This document shows positions 11,879 to 32,573 of a stretch of DNA of 41,249 nt, piece after piece. How positions within the stretch are numbered: the stretch's first letter is position 1; the number at the start of each line of letters is the position of its first letter. A program made the translations under genes and the position numbers. Source of the DNA: an uncultured Candidatus Poseidoniales archaeon (lineage in GTDB: Archaea; Thermoplasmatota; Poseidoniia; Poseidoniales; Thalassarchaeaceae); assembly GCA_964645485.1 (NCBI GenBank), contig CAZXZO010000001.1, positions 90,812 to 132,060 of the forward strand, given 5' to 3'. Below the pieces are notes generated by a model that did no database searches, had not been told where the DNA came from, and saw only the letters and a program-made list of their open reading frames with translations.

Positions 11879-14800
11879 TTACCGGTATATCTCAGGTAAA
11901 GTTGGTGTTGGTAGACGCCTTTGTGGTGGTTTTCTACGAGTAACCATTGTGAATAGAATGAGGACCCCAAGAATGACTGCCAAACCAATCACAATTCCAT
12001 TAGAAATTGTTGGGCCACCTACTCCAAGTTCGCCAGTTTCATTATTTGTGATAGATTGATTATTTTCATCATTATTTCCCTCACTTGGTATGGCTTCTGG
12101 TGGTGGATTCCACACTTCAAAGAACAGTGTTGAACTAAGTTCAACCACATCGTTCCCGTCTGTTAGAGTGAAAGTTACAACCCATGGGCCAACTGTCTCA
12201 TTGTGTCTAGGGCAAAGTACCTGCTCCATAGTTGAGAAGCCTAGTGGTTCAGAACAATCTATTGGTTGGGTAGCATAGGTTAGCCCTTCATTGGTAGAAT
12301 CGATAATGTATTCACCAACAATTACAGTCTGCGTTCCATCAGGCCAAGTCATAGTCCAGTTGACTTCTGAATTGTTCAGAAGGTCAGGGATGGTGAATGA
12401 CACGTCTTCAAACCAGACCAGCATCACAAACTTCTGATATGAACTATTCAATACAGAACTAGTGTTGTTTTGAGATATTGATGGGTGAACAGTCCATTGA
12501 GTATGAGCCGAGTGGTTGACACCATTGTCAATTTCATCATCACAATCATCGTCAATCCAATTCCAAGTTTCATTGGCGTCCGGTGCGCGCGTCGAGTCAT
12601 TGTCATCACAGTCATCAAACCAGCGGAAGCCATCCCCATCATTGTCTAAGTCAGGCACCAAAGGGTCAGTGTGAGTCACTAATAGTTCATCACCATCGAA
12701 CAAGCCATCACGGTCTGTATCGTTGTGGAATGGGTCGGTGCCAATCAGGTTGAACTCATCCAAGTCAAACAGCCTATCTCCATCGCTGTCAAGCCCGTAG
12801 AAATCCTCATCAATTAAATCATCACAATCGTTGTCAAATCCATCCAAAAGTTCGGGGTTGCCCGGGAAAAGTGAAGCATTTGTATCATTACAATCAGCAA
12901 ACCAATACCAGCCATCGGCGTCGGTATCATTATCGAAAAATAGTGGGTCACTGCTCCAATTTAGCACTTCGTCACCATCAGAAAGCCCATCTCCATCGGT
13001 GTCCCAAAAAAAGTAACCGGTGTTGTAAAAGTGATATTCTGACCAGTCACTAAGTCCGTCATTATCAGTGTCAGATTCGTTGAATCCTTCATCAATGAAA
13101 CCGTCACAATCATTGTCGCGGTTATCCAATTCTTCGGGTGCTCCGGGGAAAACCCACCAGTCATCTTCGTCGCAATCCTCGAACCAATACCAGCCGTCAG
13201 CATCGATGTCATTATCGTAGAATAATGGGTCGGAAAAAGAGGTGTAAACTTCGTATCCGTCTGACATTCCGTCACCATCAGTGTCGTTGTTAAGAGGGTC
13301 AGTTCCGTTGACAAAAACCTCCACCCCGTCAAGTAGACCATCCCCATCACTGTCAGGGTTGAGTGGGTCTGTGGAGTAGTTCAAAACCTCCAAGCCGTCG
13401 TTGAGGAAGTCATCATCTGTATCGTTGTCAAATGGGTCGGTGCTGTAATTGTTAGTTTCAGCATCATCAAGCAGTCCATCCAAATCGCTGTCACGGCTAA
13501 GTTCTGTTCCGTGGAGAATTAATTGCCAATCTTCGAAAGTTCCAGAAGTGCCACTATCCTTGTCTTCCACACTAATTGTCCAATTACCAACACTGCCTTC
13601 ATCCCAAAAGTGGACCGAAGAGAACATCCAATTATTGTAATCGTTGCCATTGTCACTGTGCTCGGTAGCGAGGACAGATTCTGTGCCGCTAGGTGAAGTC
13701 AATTTGATTTCAAGGTCACCGCGATTGTTGTGATCAATATCAACAACCACCTCAACAGATTCAAGCAGTAAGTCTTGATTTATCGAAAGAGTATCTGTGA
13801 CATCTATGCCGGTAGCATCTGGAATGGCCGAATTTAGAACTTGTAGTCCACTAGTATAGTTACTTTCGTTTTCCACTGTCGTCCAGTTTTCAGCCAAAGC
13901 CACTGCAGCGCCAGCATCAATCACGCCAAATCCGTATTTGTGGCTGACGTCATGTCCCGCACCGTTGACATTCCATGACCAATCATTTGCATCGTTAACA
14001 CGTGCTGAGTTGACTAAAACGTGCTGTACATCTCTCCAAGTGAGGTTAGAGTTTGCCTCCAACATGAGTGCGATAACTCCCGAAACAAGAGGTGTTGCGG
14101 AGGATGTACCACCGAAATTATCGTTGTAATCATTGTTTGTGTAGCCAGCCGAACCTTCGATATCGGTGGTCGTAATGCCTTCCCCATCTCCATCGGATGG
14201 AGCAGCAACTAGGATGTTATCACCCGGTTCAGAATACCATGCGTTGTCTCCGTAATGAGTGGTGGCGGCTACAGCAATTGTGAAGCGACTATTCGCGTAG
14301 CCATCATAGTTTGAGTCATCATCATTGTTCAGACCGTTTCCAGCAGCCCATGTGATGATGTTGCCAAGTCCTGAGCGTCCTTGGTAGACATCTGCTTCAA
14401 ACGCCGCCATCATCAAGGGACCAGGCGCTTCTAATGTGTATCCATTATCGCTAGGTCCCCATGAATTTGAGTAGATGTCAATTGATTGTCTCATATGACT
14501 GAGTGCATTCGCTTCTTTGGTGTCAGAAAGACTGCACGAAATCAACTGTAAACCAGCAAGACCGGCTTGTGGTGCCGCTCCTGAAACTCCGAGGCTGTTG
14601 TTTCCGACTGCAGCGGCTACGCCGGCTGCTGATGTACCATGTCCGTCCCAGTTTGAAGGATTTGGATTGCCATCATTGCCACAATAATCGTAGTCAAGTG
14701 TACTTTCATAGTAATCATCCAAATCAGGATGGTCCCAATCAAGACCGTCATCAACGATTCCGATTACAACTCCAAATCCGGTGTAATTATCCCAAACTGC

Positions 14801-15310
14801 TGTGATATTGACATCTTCACCAGTTGTTCCACTAGTTTGTCCGGTATTCTGTAAATGCCATTGGTCAGAGAATTTGGTATCATTAGGAATTAATTTTTTT
14901 GAAGCATTCCATTCAACCAATGGATAAGCGACTTCAATCACACCATCAGCCTGTAATTTAGCAAACTTATCCACTGCATCTTTGCCCGCATCTGCATCTA
15001 CAATCCATGTGTTGGGCAGGTCTGGTGTAGCCTCCCCCAAGGGTGTTTGACTTACCACAACCCATTGTTCAACTGTAGCCAATTCAGTTTCAGAATATTG
15101 AGATAAATCGCTTACACGCGCAAAAGCCGCCCTTACTGCAGGAGAAAATCCCTGTACGATGGAATCTTCATCACCCATTGGACCAAAAACACCCAAAATT
15201 GGAGTATCTTGTTTTTCTAACCCCTTCTCAATTGTGGAGAGTGAATCACCAAGTACTATCGGTGAGAGAATTGAAACAAGCAGCAAGCCAACGACCAGCG
15301 TATTTCGCAT
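11879..15310 (-). CDS. Kexin/furin-like S8 serine protease with P-domain, Ca-binding repeats and C-terminal TM
   Basis: Signal peptide; triad IVDDG, HGT, GTSSATP; oxyanion AAGNG; SNSWGP; P-domain (HNNRGDLEIKLTSPSGT, GNWTISVED); DxDxDGLxD/TDP repeats; three DCDD...PGAxE..D..DNDCDG motifs; TM followed by RRK. Confidence 0.93.
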   Translation of the reverse strand: MRNTLVVGLLLVSILSPIVLGDSLSTIEKGLEKQDTPILGVFGPMGDEDSIVQGFSPAVRAAFARVSDLSQYSETELATVEQWVVVSQTPLGEATPDLPNTWIVDADAGKDAVDKFAKLQADGVIEVAYPLVEWNASKKLIPNDTKFSDQWHLQNTGQTSGTTGEDVNITAVWDNYTGFGVVIGIVDDGLDWDHPDLDDYYESTLDYDYCGNDGNPNPSNWDGHGTSAAGVAAAVGNNSLGVSGAAPQAGLAGLQLISCSLSDTKEANALSHMRQSIDIYSNSWGPSDNGYTLEAPGPLMMAAFEADVYQGRSGLGNIITWAAGNGLNNDDDSNYDGYANSRFTIAVAATTHYGDNAWYSEPGDNILVAAPSDGDGEGITTTDIEGSAGYTNNDYNDNFGGTSSATPLVSGVIALMLEANSNLTWRDVQHVLVNSARVNDANDWSWNVNGAGHDVSHKYGFGVIDAGAAVALAENWTTVENESNYTSGLQVLNSAIPDATGIDVTDTLSINQDLLLESVEVVVDIDHNNRGDLEIKLTSPSGTESVLATEHSDNGNDYNNWMFSSVHFWDEGSVGNWTISVEDKDSGTSGTFEDWQLILHGTELSRDSDLDGLLDDAETNNYSTDPFDNDTDDDFLNDGLEVLNYSTDPLNPDSDGDGLLDGVEVFVNGTDPLNNDTDGDGMSDGYEVYTSFSDPLFYDNDIDADGWYWFEDCDEDDWWVFPGAPEELDNRDNDCDGFIDEGFNESDTDNDGLSDWSEYHFYNTGYFFWDTDGDGLSDGDEVLNWSSDPLFFDNDTDADGWYWFADCNDTNASLFPGNPELLDGFDNDCDDLIDEDFYGLDSDGDRLFDLDEFNLIGTDPFHNDTDRDGLFDGDELLVTHTDPLVPDLDNDGDGFRWFDDCDDNDSTRAPDANETWNWIDDDCDDEIDNGVNHSAHTQWTVHPSISQNNTSSVLNSSYQKFVMLVWFEDVSFTIPDLLNNSEVNWTMTWPDGTQTVIVGEYIIDSTNEGLTYATQPIDCSEPLGFSTMEQVLCPRHNETVGPWVVTFTLTDGNDVVELSSTLFFEVWNPPPEAIPSEGNNDENNQSITNNETGELGVGGPTISNGIVIGLAVILGVLILFTMVTRRKPPQRRLPTPTLPEIYR

Positions 15311-15356: not shown

Positions 15357-18326
15357 TCAAGGATTGGTTTGCCGATTATCGTAGTAAACGTGCACCGTTT
15401 CGGTTTCTTTTACACCATCACGGTCCCAATCATAACTGTCAGCAACTGCAACCAATGCATGTGTCTCTTGACGTTGAGGGGTGTCCCAAGTTTCGTACAC
15501 CACCAAAGTTGTGTTTTCGTATTGGGCGATTCCACTAGTTGATACATTTCCTTCCACTTGAACTATGTGATAGTAATACTCATGCTGTAAATCTCCAGCC
15601 ATTGTTGTGTTACGTGTGTGGATTGTGACGTCATTATTCGTCCACTCGATATTCCCATCTGCATCATCGTCAGAACGGAAAGATTCTGCTCCAACATAGA
15701 TGGTCCTTTCGTAGTGCCCATCTCCATTGAAATCTCTGCCATGCCAAACATTTGCATTCGTCCATTCTGTATCCCAAAGTCCGTCGCTGTTGTTATCCCA
15801 GTGTACTTGAATAATTTCAACAGCGTGCACTGCATTGATGTCACCATTACTGTTGAAATCCCATAGTTGTAAAATCCAAGTAGCAGTGGTTTCAGAGTTC
15901 CAGCCGTTTGGTTGCTCGTCTTGTTTTTGTGCATAGACTCTGATTGCTGCGTAGTAGTCAAGATTGCCGTCATCATTCCAATCTCTTGCTTCAGCCCCTG
16001 CTGCCGTCTCATTGTAGAAGTCCCAGTTTCCGTCATCATCCAAGTCTGTTGCCTCGGAAGAGTGGGTCAAAAACCAGGTGTGGTCTGCATTTCCATCAGC
16101 ATCCCAATCTTTGACAGTAGTTGCATAGAAAAATTTCTGCAATGTTTCAGGGTTTCCATCACCATCTGCATCGTCCTCACGTTCCATGCCAAGGGCCATC
16201 ACAACTTTGTCTTCTTGTCCGTCAAAGTTTCGGTCAATTATGCCAACACCAAGCCAGCCTGCATTACGAGTGTCAACGATTCCATCTGAGTTGTTGTCAA
16301 ATTGCTCTTCACCAAATTGTGCGGCTCGCAAGTCATCAACATGCCCGTCCCAATTCCTGTCTTTTGCGTGTACCACTTGGCCCCAATTTGCTGTGTGGTT
16401 TACGTTGCCATCACCATCCATATCTAAACTGATTGAAGTCATAATTAGCATGATTGCTTCTTCAGGTGTGCCATCATCGTTGGCGTCTACTGCGGCAACA
16501 ATTCCGTAAACAAAGTGAGTCCCTTCAATCGTGCCGTCTCCAGTCAAATCGACTTTACGAATTACTGCTCCAGCGAGTAAGACTCGCTCTGGATTTCCAT
16601 CTTCATCAACGTCAACACCAGCGGCAGCAACCAAGTAAGTATTCTCATCAACTATGGTTCCATTTGTCCAAGTTACAACTAATATGTGAAGTGCTTCAAG
16701 AACTTCAGGTGTGCCATTATCGTTCATGTCTGTGGCGTTGAGTGCTTCAATTTCATAAACTGAAATGTCTGGAATCCCATCTGAATCACGGTCAGCCGTA
16801 CAATATCTCGCTCGGTATAGGACGGCTCTCTCTGGATTTCCATCATTATTGGCATCAAGCCACATAACTGCTGTAGCGCGGTGGCAAGTTGATTCATTGA
16901 CTCCATCCCCATCCAAATCATCCATGAATGATTCATTCCACCAAACCGCGTGAGTATTGTTGATTGCGTCTTCGTAGTGTTCGGCCTCAAGCGCAGAGTC
17001 TTCACCAGCCGAATCCATCTCGTCCCCGGTATCATCGAATAAATCGTCCATGATTTCACCCTGTCCACTAAGGTTTTCATCAGGAATTTCTGTAGCAGTC
17101 TCATTTTCACTCACATGCGCATCGGTGTCCGTTAGTGGGTCATGAGAGGATTTTCCACTTCTTCCTCCACCCGTGGTGTAGTTCGATTCGGCCACCTGAG
17201 TAACCCCATCTTCATCCTTGGTTTGCCAACTATCAATGTTCCCTTCATCGTGATTTGCGTCTCCATCCCCATCGGGGTCAAAGTCAGATTCCCAGTCGTA
17301 TCCATCTTCTGATTCAGCAGGTTCTGCATCATCCACAGTGCCGTCAGAATCCTCATCGATTTCATCTTCAACAGCGCCATCATCTGGAAGGTTATCTTGA
17401 TAATACTCATAGAAGTCACTTTCAGTTAGTTCTTCAATTACTTCCACTGTGGTTGTCCAAGTGGTTTGCTCCCTTTGTGAATCCTCTGCAATCACCGTAA
17501 TTTCATAGACTCCTGCTTCTGAGTAGGAGTGGTTTTGACTGTCAGTTTGAAGGACATCAATTATCCCGTCACCCCATTGGATAATTTGGGTAATATGCCC
17601 ACCTTCTGGGTCAGAGGTAGTGAGGAAAACTGCAATCTCCTCTTCGACTAAAACGATTAGAGAACCATCACTTTCAGGTTCAACTCTAACATCCAATAAT
17701 GGAGCCAAATTTGTCGCAATCAAAATGGTGGATTCTGCGGTTCCAGTAGTGCCATTTACATCAGTCGCTGAAGCAATTATGGTGAAACTCCCGGCTGTGT
17801 CCCATGAATGGTTTCCAGTGGTCTCTGTGGAGGTTGTGCCGTCACCAAAATCAATCAAATATGTTAGTGCATCTCCATTGCCGTCGGTAGCTGAAAATGA
17901 GTAGTCAACTGAACTGTTCGCATACGAAATGCTCTGTACTGTCAAACTAACTTCTGGCACCTCATTTGGTTCTAGACTTGTGAATCTTACTTCCTTTGAA
18001 ATTGAGTTGCCATTCGCATCAGTCACGAGTACTGAAACAGTGTGGGTAATCGCTGTTAAACCGCTGAGTGATAGGCTATTCGAGGATTCACTCAAAGCGG
18101 CTCCATCCAGAGACCATGCGTATGTGTAGGGTGCTTCTCCACCCAAAACATGCACTGATACAACCTTCCCATCAACAGCCCCATCACTGGGCTCTTGAGT
18201 TACCATTGTTGCAGTGAGGGGATCAGCCTCAACTACATCTTCTCCACCGATACATCCAGCCAAGACTGACAATAACATCATCGTTATCATCAACCCGCTG
18301 GCAGCAATTTTTCTGGTCGTCAACAT
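15357..18326 (-). CDS. Large acidic lipoprotein with Ig/PKD-like domains and a long DxDxDG-repeat domain
   Basis: Lipobox LAGC; PKD motifs FGDG...HSWDTAG and WGDG...HSYSEAG; acidic linker; about 21 D-x-[DN]-x-[DN]-G motifs at roughly 21-aa spacing; SD AAGGTGG. Confidence 0.88.
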   Translation of the reverse strand: MLTTRKIAASGLMITMMLLSVLAGCIGGEDVVEADPLTATMVTQEPSDGAVDGKVVSVHVLGGEAPYTYAWSLDGAALSESSNSLSLSGLTAITHTVSVLVTDANGNSISKEVRFTSLEPNEVPEVSLTVQSISYANSSVDYSFSATDGNGDALTYLIDFGDGTTSTETTGNHSWDTAGSFTIIASATDVNGTTGTAESTILIATNLAPLLDVRVEPESDGSLIVLVEEEIAVFLTTSDPEGGHITQIIQWGDGIIDVLQTDSQNHSYSEAGVYEITVIAEDSQREQTTWTTTVEVIEELTESDFYEYYQDNLPDDGAVEDEIDEDSDGTVDDAEPAESEDGYDWESDFDPDGDGDANHDEGNIDSWQTKDEDGVTQVAESNYTTGGGRSGKSSHDPLTDTDAHVSENETATEIPDENLSGQGEIMDDLFDDTGDEMDSAGEDSALEAEHYEDAINNTHAVWWNESFMDDLDGDGVNESTCHRATAVMWLDANNDGNPERAVLYRARYCTADRDSDGIPDISVYEIEALNATDMNDNGTPEVLEALHILVVTWTNGTIVDENTYLVAAAGVDVDEDGNPERVLLAGAVIRKVDLTGDGTIEGTHFVYGIVAAVDANDDGTPEEAIMLIMTSISLDMDGDGNVNHTANWGQVVHAKDRNWDGHVDDLRAAQFGEEQFDNNSDGIVDTRNAGWLGVGIIDRNFDGQEDKVVMALGMEREDDADGDGNPETLQKFFYATTVKDWDADGNADHTWFLTHSSEATDLDDDGNWDFYNETAAGAEARDWNDDGNLDYYAAIRVYAQKQDEQPNGWNSETTATWILQLWDFNSNGDINAVHAVEIIQVHWDNNSDGLWDTEWTNANVWHGRDFNGDGHYERTIYVGAESFRSDDDADGNIEWTNNDVTIHTRNTTMAGDLQHEYYYHIVQVEGNVSTSGIAQYENTTLVVYETWDTPQRQETHALVAVADSYDWDRDGVKETETVHVYYDNRQTNP

Positions 18327-27866: not shown

Positions 27867-30809
27867 TTATAATTCCCATTTTGATTCTTGTGTTTCTGGG
27901 TTGAAGTAATACATATTTCCTTGCTGGTCATATTGCTCAATCCAATCTCCAGAATCACCTTGGTTTGAATTTGGTGGTAAAGCCCTTTCATTACTAGGTG
28001 GCGGCATTTGGGCCCGTGGTGCTGGTTCAGAGGTTGTTGCAGTTGATTGATATGTTGCTTCATCAAGACCCCATGCAACAGCATCCTGCATTGCCTCATG
28101 GATATCATCTCGATTTAATCCATCATCATTTTTCTTCTTTTTAGAAATTTGTAAAACAGTAATAATGATAATTGCTAGGAATGGGACAATAGCTAAAATC
28201 AAAATTGAACCTATATCACCATTTCCTGCTTTATCAGTAACAGTTGCAAAGAATCCATTCATGTCACTATATCCATCAGAATCTGAGTCAGGACAACCGT
28301 ACCTATCCATAGTGGATGTGCCATAGTTGCTAATACATGAATCAGAGTTGTTTCCAATACCATTGTCTCCATACCCATCTCCATCTATATCACTCCATTG
28401 AGTAGCATCAAGAGGGAACAAATCAGGCATTGTAGTTCCTTCGGGGTTATCTCCAAATCCATCTCCATCAGTATCTTTGCATTGAGTAGGGTCGTTTGGA
28501 TATAGATCAGGATTATTTCCGCTTAAATCATCACCACAATGAGATGTTGATTCAGATTTATTCAATCCATCTCCGTCTTCATCTTCCCATTGTGTTGGGT
28601 CAATAGTAAAGTGATCATAATCGGTACCATCCGCGTTATCCCCATGCCCATCTCCATCAGCGTCATGCCATTGTGTGTCATCGTTGGGGAAAGCATCTGC
28701 AGAACCATCAGGGTGCGCTAACCATCCGCCGTCAGCGTCACTATATCCATCTCCATCAGTATCAGTGCAACCCCATCTGTCTATTGTAGAGGATTGTGTG
28801 CTATCCCCAAACGGACAAGAGTCGCCCTGTGTACCTGCTGAATTATCTCCATGCCCATCTCCATCAGTATCGGAATGTTGGCTAGAATCAAAAGGCCAGA
28901 CATCGGCTCCATCCTCAATGGTCCAATTTGCGTCAGCATCACTATATCCGTCACCATCGGTGTCAAGACATCCAAATCTATCAATTGTGCTTGTCCCCTC
29001 ATCTAAGGGGCAAGCATCGCTTTGAAATGCGCCAGGGATTGCCCAGCCTATATCGTAATCTTGATGATGGAAATATCTAGAGCTTGGACTGAATGAAGTA
29101 TCCCAATCATCTACCCCCTCGTCTGAATTGTCTCCACAATCATCCCATTCGTCATTAACCCAGTTTTGAGGGATGGTGTTGCCGTTATCACAAACATAAT
29201 CTTCGTCTAGAACATCAATGAAATCATTTTCTGCACCCCATGCAGCACATAATAGCACATCCATTCCTTTTTGGCTCGCAGGAAATGCTCCATCATTAAT
29301 TGCAGTTCTAAGTTCATTCATGCAAATAGATGGGTCATATACGTTGGAAGAATCCCCAATCGTTGGATGCATAGCATTGTCTCCAAAACCATCTCCATCC
29401 GAATCAACCCATTGAGTTGAGTCTTGGGGGAAATGATCGGTATCATCTTCAAATCCGTCTCCATCAGAATCAATACATCCAGGGTAATGTTGGAAGTAGT
29501 AATTTGAACCAGCACCAAGAGGGTAAGGGTTATCGTTTCGAGGTGTGTAATCATAATTCAGATGTTCTAAGATTTCTGTTGCTTCTTCAAGTTCTTCTAA
29601 AGTCATTTGTGAATAAATAATATCAGTCAAATCTTTAGCATCTCCGCCATAATGGTCCCACGAAACTACTTCTATCGCTAATGGTCCTACTTCTGATGTC
29701 CCATTCAAAGTTCTATAAAACACCTTGAATGCACTAGTTCCCTCAACTTCTAGACATTGGTCTGAATTATCTCCATAATCGTCACCATCGGTATCATGCC
29801 ATTCCGCCCAATCATACTTGAATGCATCAGCAATTCCAATTGGATGTGCAGGGAATGTAGAATCTGGGTCACTATATCCATCCCAATCAGAATCTGGGCA
29901 ACCATTTCTATCATTGAAACTATATCCCTCAACAAATCTACAGTGGTCTGGATTATTTCCATCAGAGTTATCACCATAACCATCGTCATCTGTGTCATAC
30001 CATTGTGTGTTATCACTGGGAAAGTGATCTCCTTGGTTACCATTTGGGTTGTCTCCATGGCCATCTCCGTCCTCATCTTCCCATTGGGTGTCATCGTTGG
30101 GAAAAGCATCGTCCCCATCACAATGTCCGTCATCATCTGAATCTAGATGTTCTGAACTATCATAGGGGCAATCATCACCATAATCAGACCAGCCGTCACC
30201 ATCATAATCAGGGCAACCATCTCTGTCTTGATATGAATCCCCATCCTCATATTTACAATCATCATCATCATCATCATATCCGTCATAATCGCGATCACGG
30301 TTAGAGTCATCAATAGTTAATGTAATCTTTAACTCTGCTTGGTCATCTCCACCTAATGTGGCTGAATACCCATCATCAATACCTGTAATTTTCAGCTTTC
30401 TATAATCGTTGTTATCTATATGTGTCCATGTATATGAAATCCATGTTGGGGAACCACATGAAGTGTACCCGCCGGAACCAATCCTTCTATCACTCTCCCA
30501 TCCTGTTGAACTATAGCGATATATTTTCGCATATACATTGACATAATCGTGGTCACAGGTATTCTCAATTTTCACATAAACTTCATCACCATAATAGACA
30601 TAAAATTTGAAATAATCATAATGATCTATACCACCTGCTGCAGAATTACAATTATCATCCCAACAAACATAGGACCAAATAATTCCTGGTGAAATTAAGT
30701 CAGCCCCACTTGATGTATCATTTGGTTCAGCCGTAGCTGAAGGAGTTAACAGTATTACAATAATCATTAAACATGATATTTGACAACCAACTCTTAATAT
30801 TCCGCGCAT
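27867..30809 (-). CDS. Single-pass membrane protein with TSP3-type Ca-binding repeats, LDLa-like module and C-terminal WW domain
   Basis: Signal peptide; many DxDxDGxGD...DxFP.D..QW repeats; CDNG..IP..W.ND..DDC.D.SDE; TM followed by KKKK; W-x21-W motif with YYFN at the C-terminus. Confidence 0.88.
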   Translation of the reverse strand: MRGILRVGCQISCLMIIVILLTPSATAEPNDTSSGADLISPGIIWSYVCWDDNCNSAAGGIDHYDYFKFYVYYGDEVYVKIENTCDHDYVNVYAKIYRYSSTGWESDRRIGSGGYTSCGSPTWISYTWTHIDNNDYRKLKITGIDDGYSATLGGDDQAELKITLTIDDSNRDRDYDGYDDDDDDCKYEDGDSYQDRDGCPDYDGDGWSDYGDDCPYDSSEHLDSDDDGHCDGDDAFPNDDTQWEDEDGDGHGDNPNGNQGDHFPSDNTQWYDTDDDGYGDNSDGNNPDHCRFVEGYSFNDRNGCPDSDWDGYSDPDSTFPAHPIGIADAFKYDWAEWHDTDGDDYGDNSDQCLEVEGTSAFKVFYRTLNGTSEVGPLAIEVVSWDHYGGDAKDLTDIIYSQMTLEELEEATEILEHLNYDYTPRNDNPYPLGAGSNYYFQHYPGCIDSDGDGFEDDTDHFPQDSTQWVDSDGDGFGDNAMHPTIGDSSNVYDPSICMNELRTAINDGAFPASQKGMDVLLCAAWGAENDFIDVLDEDYVCDNGNTIPQNWVNDEWDDCGDNSDEGVDDWDTSFSPSSRYFHHQDYDIGWAIPGAFQSDACPLDEGTSTIDRFGCLDTDGDGYSDADANWTIEDGADVWPFDSSQHSDTDGDGHGDNSAGTQGDSCPFGDSTQSSTIDRWGCTDTDGDGYSDADGGWLAHPDGSADAFPNDDTQWHDADGDGHGDNADGTDYDHFTIDPTQWEDEDGDGLNKSESTSHCGDDLSGNNPDLYPNDPTQCKDTDGDGFGDNPEGTTMPDLFPLDATQWSDIDGDGYGDNGIGNNSDSCISNYGTSTMDRYGCPDSDSDGYSDMNGFFATVTDKAGNGDIGSILILAIVPFLAIIIITVLQISKKKKNDDGLNRDDIHEAMQDAVAWGLDEATYQSTATTSEPAPRAQMPPPSNERALPPNSNQGDSGDWIEQYDQQGNMYYFNPETQESKWEL

Positions 30810-30836: not shown

Positions 30837-32573
30837 TTAATCTTTGTCAACCCATACCTTTCTTTCATCATGCCATTTTTGTATAGGGCCGTCTGCAAAT
30901 TTCCTATAATTAAAGCCGTTATCTGACCAATGTTTTGGCAGTTCTGGTTTTATTGTTTCACTTTCGAATTCATTCCAACTCTTCTCATCATCATTCCATA
31001 TTTGAACGGGGGAGTTTCCCATTTTACGAAAATTATTTCCCTCATCATCTGACCAATGTTTAGGTGGTTCTGGTTTAGTTGATGGTGTAATTTCTGTGGT
31101 GTCTTTATTGAATATATTTTGAAGTAAATTCGGATTTGATCTAACAACTGTGATGGATACAATGGCTATCAGGACAATCAACAATGCGATTGATATTCCA
31201 ATCACTGGGAATTTTGATTCACCACTGGGATTATTATTTGAAATGAATATTGATTTGCAACCGTTTGGTGTTGTTTGTATTCCTAATGGTGTATTTTCAC
31301 AATCATCATTTTCATCAATGACGCCATCATTATCACTGTCAATAAAATCATCACATCCATCAGAAACATTGTCTGAATCTACATCAATTGCATCATCAAA
31401 ACCTGGGCATAAATCAGAATTGTCACCTATTCCATCTCCGTCGGAATCATTACACTCAGAAGGATCATTAGGTAATGAATCAGAATTATTTCCATCCAAA
31501 TTATCTCCACATCCATCACCATCTGAATCAGCCCATTGACTGATATCATTGATGAATGCATCAACATCATCTGTGTATCCATCACCATCTGAATCTAATT
31601 CATATAACCCACAACCATTCTCATCCACACTAACGTTTGTGTTGGTTCTGAGGCAAGAATCATTGTTGTCATCTACACCGTCATTATCATCATCAGGATC
31701 TTCAATACCCCATAATTCATCATTGTCAAAATTAGAATCACAATCTGCACCCCAAATATCCATTACAAAATTGGGATAATCAACAAATGGATTGCGATTG
31801 CCTTGAATCTCAAATATTGCCATATTTCTCTCAAGTTCTCGGCTATCTACTGGGTCATCCACATTCCATTGATACATCGTGCAAAGTTTGCCTAAAGTTC
31901 CCACACCAACAGTCCCGTGTGTGTATCCATTGAACAATGATAAATCAGGTTCATCCAATTCTCCAGAATAGCGAACATCCATGTAAAAAAGAGTTCTAGC
32001 AACATCACCTTTTACCGCATTCGGAGGTTCCCAATAATTATGTGAATAATAGCATTCAGTACATTCTTCATGTTGAATTTCAGCATAATCAAAATCCTTG
32101 TCCCATCTATCATAATTTACTGATTTATCTGTTGGTCTTAAGTTGTGTAAATCAGTTCCCGCAGCCTTTGACCTTTCAGTCCCAAAATCCCCATGAGATC
32201 GTGGCCATACATGTTCTCTATTCCATGAATCATTACTTCTAATGGGGTTCCCATTCCAATCTGAATCATTAGATGGATGTGATCTTCCGGTGTAAAATAA
32301 ATTAATATTATCAGGATTATTGGTAGAATAATCTATTTCTTCAAGATGTTCCCATGTGTCTACATAATATGCTGCAGTATGATTTTTGATAATTTCATGA
32401 AGTTCAAAATGTAACTCGGTATCAGCAACATCTGTTAAATTAACATAGTATCCATCATATTCATTTGAATATGCTGATGTTAGTACTTTAGATTCTAAAT
32501 GTTCTTCAGGCAATAATGCAAAGAGAAATGTAGTGATGAATAAAATTGTTATGAAATATGTAATGGATTTCAA
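30837..32573 (-). CDS. Extracellular Endonuclease I family nuclease with TSP3 repeats and TM anchor
   Basis: WNREHVWPRSHG, DLHNLRP....N, EPP..VKGDVAR.LFYMDVRY, QGNRNPFVDYP. TTG start follows SD GGAGTGA. Confidence 0.9.
   Translation of the reverse strand: MKSITYFITILFITTFLFALLPEEHLESKVLTSAYSNEYDGYYVNLTDVADTELHFELHEIIKNHTAAYYVDTWEHLEEIDYSTNNPDNINLFYTGRSHPSNDSDWNGNPIRSNDSWNREHVWPRSHGDFGTERSKAAGTDLHNLRPTDKSVNYDRWDKDFDYAEIQHEECTECYYSHNYWEPPNAVKGDVARTLFYMDVRYSGELDEPDLSLFNGYTHGTVGVGTLGKLCTMYQWNVDDPVDSRELERNMAIFEIQGNRNPFVDYPNFVMDIWGADCDSNFDNDELWGIEDPDDDNDGVDDNNDSCLRTNTNVSVDENGCGLYELDSDGDGYTDDVDAFINDISQWADSDGDGCGDNLDGNNSDSLPNDPSECNDSDGDGIGDNSDLCPGFDDAIDVDSDNVSDGCDDFIDSDNDGVIDENDDCENTPLGIQTTPNGCKSIFISNNNPSGESKFPVIGISIALLIVLIAIVSITVVRSNPNLLQNIFNKDTTEITPSTKPEPPKHWSDDEGNNFRKMGNSPVQIWNDDEKSWNEFESETIKPELPKHWSDNGFNYRKFADGPIQKWHDERKVWVDKD

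Follow-up and report, generated by a model that had tools for sequence, protein, structure and literature searches.

What kind of structure is built by the long, strictly spaced series of calcium-type loops that makes up the C-terminal half of a lipoprotein from a marine archaeon? The question is raised by one gene in a stretch of 41,249 nucleotides from an uncultured Candidatus Poseidoniales archaeon of the family Thalassarchaeaceae (GenBank assembly GCA_964645485.1, contig CAZXZO010000001.1, positions 90,812 to 132,060), which we call the window. The gene has 989 codons, and its repeat region spans window positions 15357-16922 (residues 469-989), i.e., the 3' half of the open reading frame (ORF). 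Marine group II (MGII) archaea, which include the Thalassarchaeaceae (MGIIb), count among the uncultured microbes that are most abundant in the surface ocean. To our knowledge, almost nothing is known of how they build their cell surface or hold particles and polymers. A preliminary description, made from the letters of the window alone, proposed that the last ~520 residues repeat a unit of about 21 residues, a strand followed by a DxDxDG loop, and that the strands form either a large barrel or a single-layer sheet. The reading that we prefer after a computational follow-up, and consider rather probable as a whole, is that of an open, calcium-edged single-layer beta-belt on a lipoprotein, which would serve as a platform for binding or scaffolding and not as a pore.

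The repeat is evident in the translation. From residue 470 onward, a regular-expression scan gives 19 strict matches to D-x-[DN]-x-[DN]-G, which together with DLTGDG at residue 593 make 20 loops with the pattern D-x-[DN]-x-D-G-x-x-[DE] (residues 470-974). The preliminary description spoke of about 21 loops; we count 20, and one further motif (NVSTSG, residue 927) is degenerate. The four example strings that it quoted are present at residues 491, 572, 698 and 865. Sixteen successive loop spacings are exactly 21 residues, and the exceptions are 39, 41, 41+39 and 80. This regularity is far beyond that of shuffled sequences: 2000 shuffles of the repeat region gave a mean of 1.0 motif (maximum 6) and a mean of 0.002 spacings of 21 (maximum 1). 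The autocorrelation of D/N residues has its maxima at 21 (0.44) and 42 (0.37). We looked for a tandem repeat in the gene at the DNA level and found none; thus the repeat units are old and diverged. The 21-residue period is preserved in 27 of 27 aligned homologues, down to 21% identity, and also occurs in distant relatives with other N-terminal architectures.

The loops are conserved much better than the segments between them. In the alignment of 28 sequences, positions 1, 3, 5, 6 and 9 of the loop are D/N, D/N/S/T, D/N, G and D/E in 98, 96, 97, 93 and 87% of cells, respectively. The mean consensus frequency is 0.86 at these presumed ligand positions against 0.52 at the other loop positions and 0.49 in the strands. 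From this contrast it follows that selection acts on the loops as such. A profile built from the 20 units (33 residues each, strand-loop-strand) matches the calcium loops of calmodulin with a whole-sequence E-value of ~4e-8, summed over four loops. At the level of the motif, this shows the repeat loop to be a canonical DxDxDG calcium loop. The likeness to EF-hands is confined to that level. An EF-hand has a 12-residue loop that closes with a bidentate Glu12 and lies between two helices; here the loops are flanked by strands in the model described below, and position 12 is not a conserved Glu. Because position 9 is acidic instead, the site is of the hairpin type known from integrin blades rather than of the EF-hand type. 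We consider it likely that most of the loops are indeed occupied by calcium.

Structure prediction turns this repeat into a sheet. AlphaFold2 (AF2), run on the 28-sequence alignment, gives a confident model of the belt domain, with a predicted local distance difference test score (pLDDT) of 92.7, at least 91.4 in all five models, and a predicted template modelling score of 0.77. The model contains 26 consecutive antiparallel strands, each 12-16 residues long. Of the 25 strand connections, 20 are the 9-residue loops and the other five are turns of 2-5 residues; where the loop spacing is exceptional (39, 41 or 80), a tight turn between longer strands takes the place of a calcium loop. Counting the connections alternately places ten loops on each edge of the sheet, and 26 strands correspond to an estimated plate of ~12-13 nm by 4 nm. 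An ESM Atlas model of a family homologue, which comes from an independent predictor, agrees with the AF2 model at a template modelling (TM) score of 0.86 and a root-mean-square deviation (rmsd) of 3.5 A over 522 residues. Both predictors thus bear out the proposal of a continuous antiparallel sheet in which every loop closes a hairpin. We regard a continuous antiparallel meander with calcium-type hairpin loops as very probable.

No known family covers the domain. In Pfam, residues 460-989 match no family at E-values up to 1; in NCBIfam, no model covers the repeat in the C-terminal half or in the distant relatives at E-values up to 0.1; and a phmmer search of the belt domain against all PDB chains returns nothing at E-values up to 10. 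Thus the repeat domain matches no family in Pfam, NCBIfam or PDB sequences. The preliminary description had held that the spacing fits neither TSP3 nor FG-GAP repeats, and neither is matched in the C-terminal half. The lipoprotein as a whole has no TSP3 match in Pfam, although a scan of this kind picks up TSP3_bac in the gene next to it. TSP3 repeats have little secondary structure between their loops, and here the model has a 12-residue strand after every loop. RTX repeats are not seen either: the GGxGxDxUx nonapeptide is absent, no RTX family of Pfam is matched, and the period is 21, not 9.

The FG-GAP family deserves a closer look, since 21 is half of 42 and the domain could be a diverged FG-GAP/VCBS propeller, or a stack of propellers, made of 42-residue four-stranded blades with two calcium loops each. 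The calcium site of integrin FG-GAP hairpins is the same type of DxDxDG loop within a beta-hairpin (PMC3192720). The 42-residue super-period, weak as it is, and the alternation of loop flavours would suit such blades. In addition, FG-GAP domains are present on 13-26% of the members of the nearest language-model clusters, and distant relatives have weak whole-sequence matches to FG-GAP and FG-GAP_3 (23.5-24.8 bits), with no single stretch passing. The FG-GAP_3 scores are below the 26.9-bit cut-off of that model, and P0041 exceeds the 22.1-bit sequence cut-off of PF01839 with 24.8 bits. A typical FG-GAP blade, however, has four strands in ~60 residues, the first carrying FG and the second GAP (PMC3192720), and the belt domain contains one FG and no GAP. 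Its strands of 12-16 residues are too long for blades, both predictors build a belt, and no propeller is found among the best 50 matches in three PDB structure searches. We consider a propeller very improbable.

Comparison with solved structures was made in two rounds. An exhaustive VIA-align search of 48,161 PDB representatives returned only outer-membrane barrels, with Z-scores of 8-12 and rmsd values of 26-33 A over the whole domain. In the second round, the top 1000 Foldseek matches were re-aligned, and the best solved match became the beta-belt of ApoB100 (9coo_A; Z 18.1, rmsd 7.7 A, 393/423 residues, model residues 22-531). A second structure of the ApoB100 belt, 9bde_A, follows with Z 15.1, so that both stand above all barrels (Z 14 or less). 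The single-layer sheet of OspA was matched with Z 9.7-10.4 and an rmsd of 4.4-4.6 A over 171-173 residues. Foldseek itself reported only local similarity in the PDB, with TM-scores below 0.1 to teneurin/Rhs shells and 0.12-0.19 to barrels. The idea of an Rhs-type shell was dropped because no such chain is in the VIA-align top 50.

These superpositions separate the two alternatives of the preliminary description. Closed barrels with 22-26 strands, the TonB-dependent receptors among them, superpose only at 25-33 A rmsd (31.4 A for MtrB and 25.8-26.7 A for LptD, both of 26 strands), and therefore the predicted model is open. The single-layer sheet stands as a prediction, whereas the barrel, with the pore or cavity that it would enclose, is not supported by the models (~30 A rmsd). 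On balance, the models favour the view that the C-terminal ~530 residues form, as a monomer, one open, gently curved, single-layer sheet.

The best solved match suggests an alternative function, in which the sheet is an amphipathic belt for lipids or hydrophobic surfaces and acts like apoB100, with one face lying on the cell's own membrane or on captured lipid particles. The dimensions agree well: strands of 12 residues compare with a mean of 11 in the apoB100 belt, which is ~4 nm wide (PMC11839476). The two faces of the archaeal sheet are rather similar. If each loop is assumed to be closed by a bridge pair, the mean Kyte-Doolittle values of the faces are -0.18 and +0.17 overall and 0.44 and 0.38 in the centre. 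With the same assumed register, hydrophobic residues make up 47% of one face and 54% of the other, and charged residues 21% and 14%; F, W, Y and H account for 18-20% on each. Such similar faces, without a clear amphipathic split, argue against a lipid-binding face of the apoB kind. The membrane-distal position of the belt on an N-terminally anchored protein, its strongly negative net charge and the lack of a sequence relation to any PDB chain also count against this alternative, which appears quite improbable.

The similarity of the faces likewise argues against a two-layer beta-solenoid, i.e., an enlarged RTX-like roll with 42 residues per turn, adjacent strands in opposite sheets and calcium in the arcs. 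The 42-residue super-period and the many small residues in the strands (20-25% A, G and S) would agree with a solenoid, and the calcium-dependent folding of RTX rolls makes it an attractive functional parallel. A sandwich of two sheets, however, needs strongly amphipathic strands with one core face, and none are seen. Moreover, both predictors pair sequence neighbours within one antiparallel sheet, and every match listed in the PDB structure searches is a meander (belt, barrels, OspA) and not a solenoid. A solenoid is extremely improbable.

Closure of the sheet is a more serious competitor. The sheet could close on itself as a giant soluble barrel of 26 strands, or several chains could associate through their edge strands (strand 1 with strand 26) into a ring, ribbon or lattice by calcium-controlled assembly. 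The open monomer would then be the view of a subunit, and a cage, a cavity or an S-layer-like array could result. The model has an even number of strands, as all-antiparallel closure requires, and the length of the array is fixed in all orthologues. Parts of barrel walls superpose on the model (TamA, rmsd 6.7 A over 154 residues; a cluster of TonB-dependent receptors, TM-score 0.36, 241 residues at 5.2 A). Two more observations favour closure and, by the same token, weigh against an open belt. The two edge strands are free and unsatisfied in the monomer, and the central stripe is ~50% hydrophobic on both faces (assuming the hairpin register), more than one would expect of a single-layer sheet standing free in water. 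Such semi-hydrophobic faces, rich in Ala and Gly, hint at burial by oligomerisation, stacking or closure. The open belt is further weakened by the nature of the structural evidence, all of which is prediction; curvature, twist and the distance between the edges were inferred from superposition statistics. The loops at residues 635 and 823 lack an acidic position 9 in most homologues, so that fewer than 20 calcium ions may be bound. Lastly, the distribution of the gene is patchy: it occurs in 14 of the 151 genomes sampled in the class and, within its own family, in 11 of 40 other genomes. Conservation of the neighbouring genes is limited to close relatives.

Against closure stand the same open belt given by AF2 and ESM Atlas, the large rmsd values to MtrB and LptD (25-31 A) and the general experience that AF2 usually closes true barrels. 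In addition, a patchy accessory gene is ill-suited to a core envelope lattice. A two-copy complex prediction (model residues 1-500) scored 0.00 and speaks neither for nor against self-association. Taken together, we find closure unlikely and keep to the open belt.

The belt is one of several parts of the protein, whose coordinates are given in Table 1. The preliminary description took the protein for an archaeal lipoprotein, and by sequence this holds: a hydrophobic stretch is followed by L-A-G-C25, which fits the lipobox pattern [LVI][ASTVI][GAS]C, and LAGC is retained in the family consensus. The putative lipid anchor is thus N-terminal, and the sequence has no C-terminal one. In the N-terminal half, Pfam finds PKD_4 (E-value 1.7e-15) and PKD (E-value 1.6e-11, two stretches), with weak immunoglobulin (Ig)-like matches at residues 52-115. 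The linker that follows is strikingly acidic, with 55 D+E against 3 K+R in the 155 residues counted (300-454), and carries further DxDxDG-like sites at 324 and 348-355. Because the lipid anchor is N-terminal, the belt should be the membrane-distal end. As deduced from the translation, the protein would extend from the membrane through three Ig/PKD domains and the 155-residue polyacidic linker to the belt as its exposed distal end.

The linker is not free to drift. Its residues D324, D328 and G355 are invariant across the lipoprotein family, and several motifs are conserved: an aromatic-rich acidic block with a DxDxDG-like site (~342-370), a Gly-Gly-Gly-Arg-Ser site, DPLTD and an MDDLF block. 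In an AF2 model of residues 300-989, pLDDT is mostly below 50 for residues 300-420, and helices at ~419-456 reach 60-78. The linker may fold only with calcium or a partner. We also considered it as a plug that fills a barrel, and rejected this idea since the linker is not folded onto the sheet in that model.

Table 1. Parts of the lipoprotein gene and the 20 calcium-type loops of its repeat domain. Loops are based on the motif scan and on conservation over 28 sequences.
Feature	Residues	Window positions	Strand	Description or basis
Whole gene, 989 aa		15357..18326	-	Lipoprotein: Ig/PKD domains, acidic linker, C-terminal Ca-loop beta-belt (predicted); ORF list, translation
Signal peptide with lipobox L-A-G-C25		18252..18326	-	Putative N-terminal lipid anchor; read from sequence, LAGC in family consensus
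Three Ig-like/PKD domains	~37-300	17427..18218	-	Membrane-proximal; Pfam PKD_4, PKD, weak Ig-like
Acidic linker	301-457	16956..17426	-	Composition, conserved motifs, AF2 pLDDT
Beta-belt domain (predicted)	458-986	15369..16955	-	26 antiparallel strands, 20 Ca-type loops, 5 short turns; AF2, ESM Atlas, ApoB100 match
Ca-type loop 1	470-478	16893..16919	-	DLDGDGVNE
Ca-type loop 2	491-499	16830..16856	-	DANNDGNPE
Ca-type loop 3	512-520	16767..16793	-	DRDSDGIPD
Ca-type loop 4	533-541	16704..16730	-	DMNDNGTPE
Ca-type loop 5	572-580	16587..16613	-	DVDEDGNPE
Ca-type loop 6	593-601	16524..16550	-	DLTGDGTIE; Thr at position 3
Ca-type loop 7	614-622	16461..16487	-	DANDDGTPE
Ca-type loop 8	635-643	16398..16424	-	DMDGDGNVN; position 9 non-acidic in most homologues
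Ca-type loop 9	656-664	16335..16361	-	DRNWDGHVD
Ca-type loop 10	677-685	16272..16298	-	DNNSDGIVD; best-conserved, all five positions in 28/28
Ca-type loop 11	698-706	16209..16235	-	DRNFDGQED
Ca-type loop 12	719-727	16146..16172	-	DADGDGNPE
Ca-type loop 13	740-748	16083..16109	-	DWDADGNAD
Ca-type loop 14	761-769	16020..16046	-	DLDDDGNWD
Ca-type loop 15	782-790	15957..15983	-	DWNDDGNLD
Ca-type loop 16	823-831	15834..15860	-	DFNSNGDIN; position 9 non-acidic in most homologues
Ca-type loop 17	844-852	15771..15797	-	DNNSDGLWD
Ca-type loop 18	865-873	15708..15734	-	DFNGDGHYE
Ca-type loop 19	886-894	15645..15671	-	DDDADGNIE; 7-residue connection in model
Ca-type loop 20	966-974	15405..15431	-	DWDRDGVKE; precedes last strand

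About 30 full-length homologues are found in the class Poseidoniia, and the gene is single-copy in its own genome (1.94 Mb, 82% complete). A scan of species-representative genomes yielded 59 loci in Poseidoniaceae, Thalassarchaeaceae, the DHVE2 group (including an Aciduliprofundum metagenome-assembled genome, MAG) and other Thermoplasmata, so that the repeat is scattered over the Thermoplasmatota in a patchy manner. For one distant cluster, from Thermoplasmata MAGs, the sole annotation is 'hypothetical protein'. The preliminary description had called for a survey of repeat number. The domain proved to be fixed at ~530 residues in orthologues of 28 to 75% identity, and in the wider family the distance between the first and the last motif varies from ~260 to ~750 residues. 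Since distant relatives carry arrays of different length, the repeat is modular. Some distant relatives (the P0039 cluster of Thermoplasmata MAGs, P0040, P0045, P0052, P0053 and P0059) are proteins of 450-610 residues with a shorter 21-residue calcium-loop array, an N-terminal signal or transmembrane segment and a C-terminal tail rich in Arg/Lys/Glu or Gly/Arg. Judged by their sequences, they have a different architecture built on the same repeat. Two further copies of the MGII type carry bacterial titles: L014 (JAOMAZ010000019.1, a Deltaproteobacteria single-cell assembly; 44% identity) and L030 (CAZSAT010000237.1, an Enterobacterales MAG; 31% identity). The likeliest explanation of these titles is mis-binning or contamination, not transfer.

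The gene downstream of the lipoprotein, on the same strand after a 46-bp gap (11879-15310, minus strand), encodes an 1143-residue S8 subtilase of the kexin-like kind. It has a Peptidase_S8 domain, a proprotein-convertase P-domain (P_proprotein), TSP3_bac repeats, MopE-type metal-binding motifs and a C-terminal hydrophobic anchor. The idea that this protease is a partner of the lipoprotein was rejected, as the two genes adjoin only in the same genus and at a 74%-identical homologue (L004, L007); the S8 gene was found neither in the other loci with 3-kb flanks nor next to P0018 or P0028. In MGIIb orthologues, a 348-residue membrane-anchored helix-turn-helix (HTH) protein (HTH_HVO_0163_N/MarR-like) is encoded directly upstream of the lipoprotein, at L002:6890-7936 and in 27 further loci (e.g., L017-L040). 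The window has no HTH counterpart at this position, and paralogous HTH proteins are encoded elsewhere in the same genome. In L007, a weakly HTH-similar ORF lies between the HMGL gene and the lipoprotein gene. Farther along the window, a 980-residue protein (27867-30809, minus strand) has as its sole Pfam match a WW domain at the extreme C-terminus (residues 955-979, E-value 2.4e-7); it adjoins an Endonuclease I family protein (30837-32573). Because the distribution is patchy and the neighbours are not conserved, the genomic context gives no functional handle.

A mechanism that agrees with these data can be outlined as follows. Each loop would bind calcium through positions 1, 3, 5 and 9 and the backbone at position 7, as do the sites of integrin FG-GAP blades. 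Two rails of ~10 Ca2+ each would hold every hairpin together and take the place of a hydrophobic core. The net charge is -79, or about -39 with 20 Ca2+ counted in. Because the chain is so acidic, it would probably stay unfolded in the low-calcium cytoplasm and would be easy to export. In seawater (~10 mM Ca2+), the loops would fill and the belt would become a rigid, flat platform, which the three Ig/PKD domains and the acidic tether would keep at a distance from the membrane. Such a platform might bind external material or neighbouring surface proteins as an adhesin, capture device or scaffold, with no channel. A surface scaffold or a binding role may thus be envisaged, as the preliminary description suggested. 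A distal, aromatic-rich plate fits such a role and does not fit a pore, and the scattered occurrence of this accessory gene suits surface equipment for particular niches better than a core layer of the envelope. We regard a binding or scaffold function as a serious possibility, slightly short of probable. A bolder version, to which we give a low probability, is a self-supporting sheet with the two Ca2+ rails as its sole core. Such a sheet might also use its free edges or its faces to build rings, ribbons or a lattice under the control of calcium, or it might wrap hydrophobic or polymeric particles in the way that apoB enfolds LDL.

In any case, the outer end of the lipoprotein appears to consist of a large, very regular module that family databases lack. 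If the prediction is true, a sheet of 26 strands would be stabilised mainly by calcium clamps at its turns and not by a hydrophobic core, which bears on the principles of protein folding. Such a sheet could be a prokaryotic counterpart of the apoB-type beta-belt and a possible design template for calcium-switchable flat scaffolds. The bolder version, if true, would introduce a principle that is new both to protein architecture and to surface capture by abundant ocean archaea.

A literature search (with subscription journals outside its coverage) found no description of a DxDxDG beta-sheet repeat belt or of a calcium-bound single-layer sheet. Taken singly, the components are known: the calcium hairpin loop on the one hand, single-layer or belt sheets on the other. 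What would be new, according to the models, is a sheet with a calcium site at essentially every turn, a strict 21-residue period and rails on both edges. With FG-GAP/VCBS domains (PF01839, PF13517) the archaeal belt shares the 9-residue DxDxDG loop that joins antiparallel strands, the acidic position 9, the lack of the EF-hand Glu12 and, presumably, the extracellular location and the structural role of calcium. An FG-GAP domain, however, has one loop per blade and closes into a seven-bladed propeller, whereas the archaeal belt has a loop after every strand with a period of 21 residues and is predicted to be open.

In both the belt of ApoB100 (9coo, 9bde) and the predicted archaeal one, antiparallel strands of ~11-12 residues pair with their sequence neighbours in one continuous open sheet ~4 nm wide. 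The ApoB100 belt is an amphipathic sheet of 120 strands that lies on a lipid core and has short turns and large inserts without calcium loops. In contrast, the archaeal belt has 26 strands in the model with calcium-type loops along both edges and lacks a clear hydrophobic face, and the sequence search relates it to no PDB chain. OspA of Borrelia (6kk9, 3cka, 2fkj, including engineered extended forms) is likewise a lipoprotein with an antiparallel meander and an exposed single-layer sheet. The free sheet of OspA has few strands, is set between two globular ends and uses two-residue turns without metal, whereas the archaeal domain would be all sheet with calcium sites as turns.

The outer-membrane barrels (TonB-dependent receptors, LptD, MtrB, SprA) also are next-neighbour antiparallel meanders with 22-36 long strands (Z 10-14). 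They are closed and embedded in lipid with a hydrophobic outer face, while the archaeal belt has acidic loops at both ends, no hydrophobic girdle and an N-terminal lipid anchor. RTX beta-rolls have tandem Asp/Gly-rich calcium sites at their turns, are very acidic and fold only outside the cell, where calcium is high. They are a functional parallel only: the archaeal belt likewise has tandem acidic calcium-type turns in a repetitive domain that is predicted to be all-beta and would be expected to fold outside the cell, but the RTX roll has a period of 9 and is a parallel two-sheet structure, whereas the archaeal belt has a period of 21 and is predicted to be antiparallel and single-layered.

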